A DNA stretch of 59,312 nucleotides, filler included. It is 4 parts of 4 records of this genome, joined end to end, with 100 filler letters (N's around TTAATTAATTAA, not from the genome) between each part and the next. Parts side by side here need not be neighbours in the genome. Positions count along the whole stretch, not along the records: positions 47,253 to 52,769 come from SRR31156797_2822; 3 more parts are not named here. One strand, 5' to 3'. The position numbers were made by a program, and so were the translations under genes. A model generated the notes under the pieces. It had not been told where the DNA came from. It was given only the letters and a program-made list of their open reading frames with translations, and ran no database searches. Positions 48,540-51,364 of the stretch are shown here, piece after piece. Numbering within the stretch: position 1 is the first letter of the stretch; the number at the start of each line of letters is the position of its first letter.

Positions 48540-49490
48540 ATGGATAGCGAACCCAGAGGGCTGAGAGACATTCCCGTGGGAGAATCCGACACCGATACCG
48601 ATGAGCTCTCTGCCGCAATGTACCGGCAGGAGCTCAACGAACTTCGGATCGAAAAGCTTGGGAACAGGATCACCATCATCTCGGTGATCCTCCCCTGCCT
48701 TATCGGTGCCGTCCTCTTTTTTGCCTACATGGACATGAAGGAAAGGATGACCAGTGTCCACGACACCGGCCAGACCGAAGTCCAGGAGGTTGCGGAGAAT
48801 CTCGACGCAAAGCTGAACGCCATGACCGTGGATCTTGCAGGGGTGCAGCACACCCTTGCAACCCGGCTGACAGATGTTGACCGGACCCTCAAGGACCTTG
48901 AGTCGAACATTGCAAAACTCACAACAACCAAGGCGGAGAAAAAAGAGATAACACGGGCGCTGAACCGGATCGATAAAACGGTTTCAGACATTTCAGCCAA
49001 TGCCGCCCGCAACAACCAGGCCATGAAGACCCTGGAAAAGGCCGACACCAAGCTCAAGGCCGATACCAAAGGCATTTCCAGGACTGTGGCCAAGGCTGTT
49101 GAAACAGGGAACGCGGCCGCAAAAAAGACGGCCCGGCTGGAAGCGTCCATCGCGAGCCTGACCGGGGCCCTCAAAACCGAACAGCGCAAGGTGAAAACCC
49201 TTGAAGCACGTGCCGCTGAAGATGGGGAAACCATCGCCTTTCTGCAAAAAGAAGTCAGCCTGGTTAAAAAAAAGGCGAAGACCCTTGACCGCACCTTTGT
49301 CGACCGGAACGTTCTGGATGATGAACTTGACCGGATCAAATCCGAGTATGACCGGAAGATCGACCGCTTGATGCAGCTGGTTGAGAAAGCCGGTAAAACG
49401 GACAAGGCCCCGACTCCGGTATCCCCTGCCACCCCCCCTGTAAAACCGACGCCTTCGGACACCATCTCCGAAAAAGATCTGTTGCAGTAG
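48540..49490 (+). CDS. Single-pass membrane protein with long coiled coil and Pro-rich tail
   Basis: TM segment ITIISVILPCLIGAVLFFAY, heptad-rich body, PTPVSPATPPVKPTP; 3 bp after guaA. Confidence 0.8.
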   Translation: MDSEPRGLRDIPVGESDTDTDELSAAMYRQELNELRIEKLGNRITIISVILPCLIGAVLFFAYMDMKERMTSVHDTGQTEVQEVAENLDAKLNAMTVDLAGVQHTLATRLTDVDRTLKDLESNIAKLTTTKAEKKEITRALNRIDKTVSDISANAARNNQAMKTLEKADTKLKADTKGISRTVAKAVETGNAAAKKTARLEASIASLTGALKTEQRKVKTLEARAAEDGETIAFLQKEVSLVKKKAKTLDRTFVDRNVLDDELDRIKSEYDRKIDRLMQLVEKAGKTDKAPTPVSPATPPVKPTPSDTISEKDLLQ

Positions 49491-49508
49491 ACCGTCCTGT
49501 TTTAAGAT

Positions 49509-51113
49509 ATGCAACTTGCGGCCAACAGGGTGACACCCGGCAAAACCGATGCCGAAACAAGACTCCTAAACCAGGAGCTGGGCTTTTCGGCATCCTACAT
49601 GGCGATAAAGACCCTCAACCTCCGGGTTGAGCGGTCCCCCCACAGGGTGACGGACCAGACAGTGGAAGCCCTTGTCTCCGTCATCGAATCAAAGCGGTTC
49701 GACACCCGGAAGCAGGCCCTGTTTCTGTTCCGGGAATCGGCCGAAACCCTGGTTTCCATTCTCACCAGGGTCAAGGGAAGCCCGGGATCAATGGTGATTC
49801 CGGCACTTCAAAAAATCCTTGTCACCAGCATGGGCCACCGGCACAGGGCCGTTGGCGAGGCCCTTGGCTCCCTACCCCTTTCCATCCGGGCACCAGGGCT
49901 CCCCGAAACAGGGAATACCGAATTTTGTACCCTGCCCTTCCAGGAGATATTGGACAGGCTCGACATCGCCCGGGAAACGGAATTGACCTGGCGGGGCAGA
50001 AGCTTGACCGCCCCGGCCCGGAACGGCCGCACAGGGGTGATCAAATTTGTAAAAACCGGTGAAGACCCCTTTGCCCTGACCAATGAAACCGGATGGATGG
50101 ATTTTTTCGAGTCCGTCCCCGCCCTGCCCCTGACCGAATGTGACATTCCAGGCCCGGTGAAAAAGAATGGAATCGCCCTTTTTAAAATCGTTGATATCCC
50201 CCGGACGATCCGTCTGTCGGACAACCTTCACCCGGAACGATTCGCCATCGGTTTTTCCGCGGCAAAAACGTACTATGAGTATCCCAACGAACCCCTCCAT
50301 GCCGCAGTCCCCCTTGACCTGTCCGAAGTCCTGGGCCGCAATGCAAGGCTTCTGGGCACCACGTCAGCCATGGGTATCGTCCATACCGCGGTGATCCCCC
50401 TGTTTCACAACAGGGTGCAGCAAGACAGGCGGGAGGACGGGGGCATCTATGAATGGGAACGCAGCGGCAGGCTGGACCGGTGGCTTGAAAGCTGCCGCCA
50501 TCCCAATTTTGCAACCTCCGGCCTGAGGGACTTTGAACATTTCGATTCGATTCAACAGACCAAACGTATCCACCACCACATCGGCTCCCACCTCCTGAGC
50601 CTCATCCTTGTGGCCGGCAGTTTCTTCAGGAACCGCAGCCCTGAAAAACAGGGCAAGGACAACCAAGGCAATCCGGTGGATACACGGCAGCTCTTTGACC
50701 CCGCCCTGTTTGAAGAGGCGATCGCCTGTTCAGTGAACGCATACTATCTCGCTTTCACGGGGATTGAAACACCCCCGGCCTTTACCCGCCCGCCGGCGGG
50801 CTTTGTTGACGCCCTGATCGATGAAATGGGCGTTGACCGTCACATGGAGGAGGTCCTGCGGGTGGACGACCAGAACAGGATGGATTCGGATCAGTTTGAG
50901 CAATTCCTCCTGGAGCGGGGACTCCAAAAGGAAGAGATCGCCCGGTATGAAAAAGGAAAAGCCGAAATCACCCTTGACACCGGCCCCCACCTGGGGGGAT
51001 TCAACCAGGGGATATCGGTTCCACAGCTGATTGACTACATTTTCACCTGCGCGTCACTCATGGTCAGCGGCAGATACACCAGGGAAAACGGCTTGAAAGA
51101 AAGTTCGAATTAA
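49509..51113 (+). CDS. SidJ-related pseudokinase (candidate protein glutamylase)
   Basis: GRS (R164), VIK (K179), E193, FHNRVQQDRREDGGIY (H300/R308/Y314), GRLDRW (R321), PNFATSGLRDFEH (N333/D341), LGGFN (N499); order and spacing match Legionella SidJ as recalled. Confidence 0.85.
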   Translation: MQLAANRVTPGKTDAETRLLNQELGFSASYMAIKTLNLRVERSPHRVTDQTVEALVSVIESKRFDTRKQALFLFRESAETLVSILTRVKGSPGSMVIPALQKILVTSMGHRHRAVGEALGSLPLSIRAPGLPETGNTEFCTLPFQEILDRLDIARETELTWRGRSLTAPARNGRTGVIKFVKTGEDPFALTNETGWMDFFESVPALPLTECDIPGPVKKNGIALFKIVDIPRTIRLSDNLHPERFAIGFSAAKTYYEYPNEPLHAAVPLDLSEVLGRNARLLGTTSAMGIVHTAVIPLFHNRVQQDRREDGGIYEWERSGRLDRWLESCRHPNFATSGLRDFEHFDSIQQTKRIHHHIGSHLLSLILVAGSFFRNRSPEKQGKDNQGNPVDTRQLFDPALFEEAIACSVNAYYLAFTGIETPPAFTRPPAGFVDALIDEMGVDRHMEEVLRVDDQNRMDSDQFEQFLLERGLQKEEIARYEKGKAEITLDTGPHLGGFNQGISVPQLIDYIFTCASLMVSGRYTRENGLKESSN

Positions 51114-51175
51114 GATATATACTGCGCAGTTTACATGTTGCAAGACAATACAAGCCAGATAAAGGAAATGTAAAA

Positions 51176-51364
51176 ATGTCAAAGCAATATCCTGAATGCC
51201 CTCTCTACAATCACGCCACCTGCAAAGAACTTCACAACCCAAAGCTTTGCGCCATCGTCCGGGACGACAATTCCTGCTTCAAAAAACGCCAGAAGACAAA
51301 ACCGACTGAAGAATCCCCTGCATCCGGAGCTTCCGGCGCTTCCGGAGACACGGCCGGATCCTGA
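51176..51364 (+). CDS. Small 4-Cys protein (C-x7-C-x8-C-x8-C), possibly metal-binding
   Basis: MSKQYPECPLYNHATCKELHNPKLCAIVRDDNSC; AAGGAA upstream; basic then ASG-repeat tail. Confidence 0.65.
   Translation: MSKQYPECPLYNHATCKELHNPKLCAIVRDDNSCFKKRQKTKPTEESPASGASGASGDTAGS

Follow-up and report, generated by a model that had tools for sequence, protein, structure and literature searches.

We examined a window of 59,312 nucleotides (the whole stretch of DNA that was analysed, four contigs joined end to end) whose third contig encodes a 534-amino-acid (aa) protein related to the Legionella glutamylase SidJ. The gene for this SidJ-related protein (SidJr) lies between the genes for a 316-aa coiled-coil protein (CC) and a 62-aa protein with four cysteines (Cys4), behind the housekeeping gene guaA. 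The best explanation as a whole, to which we assign a probability of about 65%, is that SidJr is a stand-alone, calmodulin-independent, endogenous glutamylase whose neighbours are not its dedicated partners. The flanking genes are probably neighbours by descent, and not the dedicated substrate and activator of SidJr.

SidJr Shares the Fold and Catalytic Residues of SidJ

Computation established the family membership of SidJr, its fold, the conservation of its catalytic residues and the absence of the C-terminal domain of SidJ. Against the NCBIfam family NF033874, "SidJ-related pseudokinase," SidJr scored 623.5 bits (cut-off 300; E = 2.9e-187), with residues 25–523 aligned to profile positions 2–506 of 507, which makes it a member; the identity of the enzyme is already captured by this curated family, and Pfam held no match to it. 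A profile built from 22 homologues and compared with the PDB matched the SidJ chains 7mir, 6plm and 6k4k (E = 1.6e-15 to 1.9e-15) over profile positions 153–344. The AlphaFold2 model, computed from 80 sequences (predicted local distance difference test [pLDDT] 88.5, predicted template modelling score 0.89), displays a helical N-terminal domain (residues ~14–120) and a kinase-like domain (~140–530) that carries the catalytic-loop insertion of SidJ. When this model was compared with the PDB using Foldseek, SidJ chains filled the listed ranks 1–15 (E = 6e-13 to 4e-10), followed by c-Src and ordinary kinases at E = 5e-3. Structural alignment of the model with SidJ by VIA-align gave Z scores of 23.9–25.7 over 393–418 residues, the runner-up being the AMPylating pseudokinase YdiU (Z = 10.3, 196 residues).

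Residue pairs between SidJ and SidJr were counted by hand on the profile alignment, with SidJ numbering obtained by adding 95 to the 7mir chain index (per the 6k4k range). In the kinase cleft, the pairs (SidJ/SidJr) were R352/R164, K367/K179, E381/E193, N534/N333 and D542/D341, and in the migrated nucleotide pocket and donor-glutamate site they were H492/H300, Y506/Y314 and R522/R321. All eight of these SidJr residues were invariant in 80 sequences that are 38–91% identical to the window protein, and R321 lies within an invariant GRLD motif (G320, R321, L322, D323). R308 was also invariant and would align with SidJ R500, a residue whose role was reportedly described by Black et al. 2019. Within the available text of Sulpizio et al. 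2019 (PMC6858067), SidJ K367, D542 and H492 are described as essential and N534 as important, and R352, E381 and Y506 are assigned to the two pockets. According to the available part of the preprint of Osinski et al. 2021 (10.1101/2021.04.13.439722), the SidJ R522A variant retains adenylation but can neither bind the donor glutamate nor glutamylate. The first-pass annotation of this DNA had named a SidJ-like enzyme here, and the family hidden Markov model, the PDB profile, the predicted fold and the retained catalytic residues all bear this out.

The C-terminal part of SidJ binds calmodulin via an IQ motif. This part is absent from SidJr: the C-terminus of the SidJr model aligns to SidJ residues 762–767, one deposited SidJ sequence having 873 residues, and the protein ends at residue 534 with no calmodulin-binding IQ-motif domain. 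Because this domain is absent, SidJr is not an orthologue of SidJ. In the available part of the same preprint, SidJ homologues outside Legionella are likewise described as having no IQ motif (10.1101/2021.04.13.439722).

Neither a signal-peptide-like nor a membrane-like stretch was noticed in the sequence or model of SidJr. Among the 74 genomes of the sampled class that scored over the cut-off (see below), 72 held one match each, the second row of another genome being a fragment on a separate contig, and each of five further genomes also held a single match. SidJr thus looks like the bacterium's own chromosomal protein, in line with the "endogenous" label that it had been given at first pass.

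Proposed Reaction of SidJr and Alternative Activities

By analogy with SidJ, the chemistry of SidJr would be that of an adenylating ligase, probably a glutamylase. We propose that SidJr is most likely active in the cytoplasm and independent of calmodulin. ATP would be bound in its kinase-like cleft (K179–E193 pair, R164, N333 and D341), and SidJr would adenylate a carboxylate of its target protein, both by analogy with SidJ, and would then ligate free glutamate held in a SidJ-type migrated pocket (H300, Y314, R321). The target would be a protein of the bacterium itself; like the chemistry, this endogenous target and the independence from an activator are inferred. In genomic terms, the backbone order guaA–CC–Cys4–MltD-like recurs among the relatives of the window, many of whose records are labelled Desulfobacteraceae, and in one clade a stand-alone SidJr gene sits between the CC and Cys4 genes.

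We also considered that SidJr performs another kinase-fold reaction, such as SelO/YdiU-like AMPylation or the ligation of another amino acid, or that it is a non-catalytic scaffold. YdiU/SelO is the next structural neighbour after SidJ, SidJ itself is described as AMPylating itself in the available text of Sulpizio et al. (PMC6858067), and we found no activity data for the NF033874 family in the literature. Against a different reaction, the donor-glutamate residue R522 of SidJ, the one whose exchange for alanine leaves adenylation but abolishes glutamylation (10.1101/2021.04.13.439722, in the part available), aligns with the invariant GRLD motif of SidJr, and H300 and Y314 of the migrated pocket are likewise invariant. 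A dead scaffold sits poorly with eight catalytic residues that are invariant over 80 sequences. We regard this set of alternatives as unlikely, although it is the most serious competitor to the glutamylase reading.

Gene Layout of the Locus

The four contigs of the window are separated by N44-TTAATTAATTAA-N44 spacers at 16294–16393, 47153–47252 and 52770–52869. Their GC contents differ (0.59, 0.35, 0.55 and 0.48, in order), so they may come from different organisms of a metagenome bin, and inference across the contig joints is invalid. The locus under study is the third contig (47253–52769, 5517 bp), on which the following genes were called:

47256–48536, + strand: guaA, glutamine-hydrolysing GMP synthase, 5′-truncated by the contig edge (NF000848, Pfam)
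48540–49490, + strand: CC, 316 aa, single-pass membrane coiled coil (open reading frame [ORF], 22-orthologue alignment)
49509–51113, + strand: SidJr, 534 aa, SidJ-related kinase-fold enzyme (NF033874, profile against PDB, AlphaFold2 model)
51176–51364, + strand: Cys4, 62 aa, four invariant cysteines (alignments, codon-position pattern)
51377–52486, − strand: MltD-like lytic transglycosylase, 369 aa, SLT and one C-terminal LysM domain (Pfam)
52613–52769, + strand: first codons of a DUF748/AsmA-family gene that runs off the contig (ORF clustering with loci L001–L003)

All of these are real genes. The gaps between guaA and CC, CC and SidJr, and SidJr and Cys4 are exactly 3, 18 and 62 bp, and the MltD-like gene is convergent with the four genes listed before it, its near end lying 12 bp past Cys4. 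The co-oriented genes, their spacing and the facing LysM transglycosylase had all been described at first pass, and ORF coordinates and Pfam agree with that description; the accompanying remark that the contig holds no secretion or mobility genes carries little weight, since the contig is merely 5517 bp long. The nearest relative of the locus (L001), in a metagenome-assembled genome labelled Desulfobacteraceae, encodes a GuaA 98% identical and a SidJr 91% identical to those of the window.

The Conserved Arrangement Is Confined to One SidJr Clade

A scan of one genome per species yielded 343 confirmed relatives of SidJr from 371 matched stretches, and the best 80 loci were analysed. Locus contexts were obtained using tblastn with the five proteins of the window together with conservation-weighted clustering of ORFs; the ORF picker missed CC in L004–L007, L016 and L022, where tblastn shows it, and missed the SidJr ORF of L047. 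In 40 of the 80 loci we found guaA–CC–SidJr, mostly followed by Cys4 and MltD, with SidJr identity to the window protein down to ~41%; eight of these 40 leave no room for Cys4 between SidJr and MltD. The other 40 loci had none of guaA, CC, Cys4 or MltD as neighbours of SidJr. Their flanks were mixed, including PilT-like ATPases with a response regulator and an ABC transporter, RND efflux genes, MCP/CheW, cobalamin genes, RF3 and GlgB; the PilT-like ATPases flank one SidJr subgroup only. Among the genes that recur beside SidJr, we saw none for secretion systems or mobility. The small ORFs adjoining SidJr outside the syntenic loci (clusters 36, 48, 51, 52 and 64) were considered as a possible shared neighbour and rejected: they show no relationship to one another or to Cys4, and several appear spurious.

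A quick maximum-likelihood tree was built from 80 SidJr proteins, those of the window and of 79 loci, without L047. Every syntenic row fell to the same side of a branch supported at 100% by SH-aLRT, and the synteny label needs only two changes on this tree. The second of these reflects relocation, in that L027 and L043, both from Desulfospira, are nested in the syntenic clade with SidJr located elsewhere. Because they form one clade and the label changes only twice, the 40 syntenic loci count as one evolutionary event. The outer genes are kept in syntenic loci as well, with elongation factor P (EF-P) upstream and inositol monophosphatase and a GTPase downstream, which points to general synteny and not to a special pairing.

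The Neighbouring Genes Persist Without SidJr

In each of the two Desulfospira genomes there is a single SidJr match, with guaA–CC–MltD intact elsewhere: in one genome SidJr lies ~4 Mb from this block, and in the other it is on a separate contig. Cys4 was not found in either of these two genomes. We also took ten loci in which a high-scoring Cys4 has no SidJr beside it. The order guaA, CC, Cys4 was kept in all ten, and MltD is shown in eight. CC in these loci retains its acidic N-terminus, juxtamembrane motif and C-terminal motif, and their Cys4 is 64–90% identical to the window copy. Two of the loci, L093 (4036–4161, − strand) and L094 (6178–6303, − strand), carry a 42-codon remnant of SidJr (residues 493–534) between CC and Cys4, in genomes with no other trace of SidJr; these remnants are footprints of gene loss. 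Separately, similar short C-terminal SidJr matches (profile positions 470–507) were observed in genomes G032 and G038.

For a phyletic sample we used 201 evenly drawn genomes from the class of G001, a Desulfospira genome; we take this class to be Desulfobacteria. SidJr scored over the cut-off in 74 of the 201, Cys4 was present in 154, and CC, with a presence threshold of E ≤ 1e-12, was present in 130 with one match each. SidJr and Cys4 were found together in 51 genomes, SidJr only in 23, Cys4 only in 103 and neither in 24 (odds ratio 0.52, p = 0.058); the corresponding counts for SidJr and CC were 44, 30, 86 and 41 (odds ratio 0.70, p = 0.28). Neither CC nor Cys4 was enriched in the SidJr-carrying genomes of this sample. 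Fifteen of the 74 genomes with SidJr have CC next to it (20 genomes computed, 24 read from position tables), and Cys4 adjoins SidJr in at least nine genomes among the matches listed, as checked by eye. In five of the genomes whose syntenic locus leaves no room for Cys4, it was not found anywhere by a profile that did find it in two control genomes.

The genomic distribution also bears on the idea that SidJr, like its Legionella relative, was acquired horizontally and acts outside the cell as a secreted effector or as a weapon between microbes, for which local context would be irrelevant. SidJr is patchy, occurring in 74 of 201 genomes, and the available part of the preprint describes SidJ homologues in diverse taxa, including archaea and viruses, and suggests horizontal spread (10.1101/2021.04.13.439722). 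Set against this are the lack of any noticed signal peptide or membrane span, the single match in nearly every SidJr-carrying genome, and the large SidJr clade that occupies a stable chromosomal slot amid housekeeping genes. Moreover, the remnants point to loss and not to mobility, secretion and mobility genes were unseen among the recurrent neighbours, and PilT-like ATPases are limited to one subgroup. We consider an exported weapon the least probable of the alternatives, with only a very slim chance of being correct, and an endogenous enzyme remains our preferred reading.

The Coiled-Coil Protein CC

CC begins with an acidic N-terminus of variable sequence, followed by a conserved motif, a single hydrophobic span (residues ~45–64), ~240 aa of coiled coil and a C-terminal motif. 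In the alignment of 22 orthologues, the motif Y-x-x-E-I/L-N-x-L-K-I-D/E-K-L-x-N-R leads into the hydrophobic span, a semi-conserved Glu/Asp of the N-terminus stands beside the span, and the poorly conserved coiled coil ends in a conserved I-x-E-x-x-L-x-Q. The N-terminus before the motif contains 6–11 Asp/Glu vs 1–7 Lys/Arg. Pfam and NCBIfam returned weak coiled-coil matches or noise only, and Atlas look-ups for CC and for Cys4 returned only "hypothetical protein" clusters, from Thermodesulfobacteriota. CC follows guaA even in loci where SidJr is absent or located elsewhere: the stable partner of CC is guaA, not SidJr. In loci L087 and L088, from two distant class members (G005 and G004), guaA is directly followed by a weak CC-like gene (CC-profile E = 7e-16 and 2e-9). 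The guaA–CC pair may be old in this group.

The Four-Cysteine Protein Cys4

In 66 Cys4 sequences, C8, C16, C25 and C34 (C-x7-C-x8-C-x8-C) and His13 were invariant and His20 nearly so, with a basic KK-x-QK stretch and then a variable tail following the Cys/His part. Differences per site among 43 copies amounted to 0.10, 0.06 and 0.46 for the first, second and third codon positions, a pattern that marks Cys4 as a real protein under selection. Its first 42 residues keep 83–90% identity in most of the loci whose SidJr has only 41–46%, and in most loci their conservation exceeds that of the neighbouring GuaA (75–82%). Cys4 belongs to no family in Pfam or NCBIfam. Of its 109 homologues, those that carry a name are called "hypothetical protein," with one exception (P0136), which bears the JGI label [quoted passage not shown] AlphaFold2 gave no usable fold from 66 sequences (pLDDT 50.4). 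Cys4 may be a small metal-binding protein. A complex prediction of SidJr with Cys4, run without controls or custom alignments, scored 0.00 against a mark of 0.34, which speaks neither for nor against binding.

Transcription of the Locus

In RNA libraries from one marine-sediment study, contigs span the junctions guaA/CC, CC/SidJr and SidJr/Cys4 on the + strand side. These contigs are 90–99% alike to the window and come partly from relatives, and the runs hold 5–11% of the sampled words. They cover guaA, parts of CC and SidJr, Cys4 and MltD, with CC 48909–49276 and parts of SidJr uncovered. The bridged junctions fit co-transcription, which is possible, but are no proof of one continuous transcript or of freedom from DNA carry-over; they also weakly suggest that relatives of the locus are expressed in sediment. 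In our model, the flanking genes would probably share a transcript with SidJr. A promoter and terminator scan of the contig gave 3 and 9 sites vs 2.1 and 7.9 expected by chance, and so gives no operon boundaries.

Are the Neighbours Dedicated Partners of SidJr?

The first-pass annotation had proposed a dedicated module, perhaps linked to the envelope or to division, in which SidJr glutamylates the acidic N-terminus of CC and Cys4 activates the enzyme in place of calmodulin. This idea draws on the co-orientation of the genes with gaps of 18 and 62 bp, on an arrangement present in 40 of 80 loci with SidJr identity as low as ~41%, and on the acidic CC N-terminus with its semi-conserved Glu/Asp by the span; moreover, an enzyme without its own calmodulin-binding domain could conceivably have another activator. 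The 40 loci nevertheless represent one event, and guaA, MltD, EF-P and inositol monophosphatase are conserved alongside, as expected of general synteny. The backbone occurs without SidJr in 10 of 10 loci, with guaA–CC–MltD in the two Desulfospira genomes, and CC has the same features there. Of the 127 sampled genomes without SidJr, 103 have Cys4, whereas 23 of the 74 with SidJr gave no match to it, and 30 of these 74 gave none to CC at E ≤ 1e-12. The five genomes with syntenic SidJr and no Cys4 match anywhere, set beside the positive controls, speak against the module as well.

Across the 80 loci, then, the neighbourhood of SidJ-related homologues is largely not conserved with the pseudokinase, and a dedicated enzyme–substrate–activator module, for which recurrence in independent lineages and co-occurrence would speak, showed neither among these loci and the 201 genomes. 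The claim that the neighbours supply substrate and activator is unsupported, given an adjacency limited to one clade, a backbone that persists without SidJr and odds ratios below 1 for both partners. For Cys4, an obligatory activator role is very unlikely, because SidJr exists without Cys4 and Cys4 exists far more often without SidJr; its casting as a calmodulin substitute is likewise unsupported. For CC, the acidity of the N-terminus is real (6–11 Asp/Glu), but its role as a dedicated Glu acceptor is unsupported. Overall, we judge the module improbable.

We hold a narrower form to be equally doubtful, namely that in a Desulfobacteraceae-like clade a calmodulin-independent SidJr, co-transcribed with guaA, is an endogenous glutamylase that conditionally modifies the acidic cytoplasmic tail of CC. 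If it were true, nucleotide or energy status would be linked to an envelope process next to MltD, and the substrate would be older than its modifier and outlive it, which would explain the backbone where SidJr has been lost.

Several points weigh against our preferred reading of SidJr as a stand-alone glutamylase with unrelated neighbours. The CC–SidJr gap is 3–35 bp in 30 of 34 syntenic loci (window included; CC called directly upstream), which fits co-expression. Since a substrate may persist after its modifier is lost, the CC tail might be one facultative target of SidJr in the syntenic clade, a role that nothing but adjacency favours. The assemblies behind the absence calls had been filtered at ≥90% completeness, and individual completeness values are not given for them. 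Glutamylation is extrapolated from proteins that are ~12–18% identical to SidJr in the structural alignments, and the model has pLDDT <50 at residues 301–305, within the nucleotide pocket. Finally, we found no published biochemical activity for any NF033874 member.

Other Genes of the Locus and the Window

GuaA scored 682.5 bits against NF000848 (cut-off 400) over profile positions 83–512 of 512, making it a member of this family, with the Pfam domains GMP_synt_C, GATase and NAD_synthase; the contig edge is responsible for the first ~82 missing profile positions, the N spacer ending at 47252. The transglycosylase scored 82.9 bits for SLT and 50.6 bits for LysM in Pfam, and 163.6 bits against the MltD family NF008050, under the cut-off of 508, for which reason we call it only "MltD-like." The 52-aa open-ended ORF at the contig end clusters with a gene of 1090–1129 aa downstream of MltD in L001–L003, which matches PF05359 (DUF748; 918 bits) and AsmA.

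Elsewhere in the window, two very similar tandem paralogous ORFs of 361 aa (44198–45283 and 45613–46698, both on the − strand) lie on the contig with a GC content of 0.35. On the fourth contig, a long membrane-protein-like ORF (52818–54602, − strand) has a segment of ~100 residues repeated near both ends; it runs into the N spacer, and its listed end is an artefact.

Comparison With Known Systems

To our knowledge, the one enzyme so far known to glutamylate by means of a kinase fold is a Legionella effector dependent on host calmodulin. The SidJr family keeps the examined residues for adenylation and ligation, has no calmodulin module, is chromosomal and occurs in about one third of the sampled class (74/201), traits that point to a self-directed modification enzyme in sulfate reducers. 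What is of interest here is the family, whose members may be endogenous glutamylases with a kinase fold, together with the conserved Cys4, and not the gene arrangement of the locus. As the neighbourhood reveals neither substrate nor activator, the search for these should turn from the adjacent genes to proteomics or phylogenetic profiling.

Among described proteins, the closest are the other members of NF033874, a hypothetical equivalog family that includes HRM2_18850 of Desulforapulum autotrophicum and a Desulfospira joergensenii protein, with which SidJr shares 38–91% identity, a length of ~505–560 aa and the same invariant motifs. SidJ of L. pneumophila, which has a paralogue, SdjA, is a calmodulin-dependent kinase-fold glutamylase onto which the kinase-like domain and part of the N-terminal domain of SidJr superpose; SidJr conserves the residues that bind ATP and metal, those of the migrated pocket and the one that holds the donor glutamate. 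SidJr differs in having no C-terminal calmodulin-binding part, and in belonging to a free-living sulfate reducer whereas SidJ belongs to an intracellular pathogen. Legionella sidJ sits beside SidE genes. In the available part of the preprint, SidE homologues are described in Legionella species only (10.1101/2021.04.13.439722). SidJ homologues in Elusimicrobia, Desulfovibrio hydrothermalis and Waddlia are already in print (Sulpizio et al. 2019, PMC6858067), and free-living bacteria have homologues with the catalytic motifs kept, whose functions are not reported in the available parts of these sources (PMC6858067; 10.1101/2021.04.13.439722). A supplementary figure of the preprint (Figure S9, with a tree and logos of SidJ homologues) may already show this clade. 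Our literature searches turned up no study characterising a homologue from outside Legionella, and a 2025 review, in the part available, mentions the Legionella enzyme only.

Two further systems offer more distant parallels. The SelO/YdiU AMPylating pseudokinases, the next-best structural match, are endogenous bacterial enzymes in which a kinase fold has been repurposed for nucleotide transfer, but their likeness to SidJr is far weaker than that of SidJ and comes without a sequence-level match, and SidJr has the SidJ-specific insertion and the glutamate-binding Arg. RimK, which glutamylates ribosomal protein S6, provides a precedent for endogenous protein polyglutamylation in bacteria, as described in the available text of PMC11957791; it differs from SidJr in its unrelated ATP-grasp fold and in having known partner genes (RimA, RimB and RpsF).

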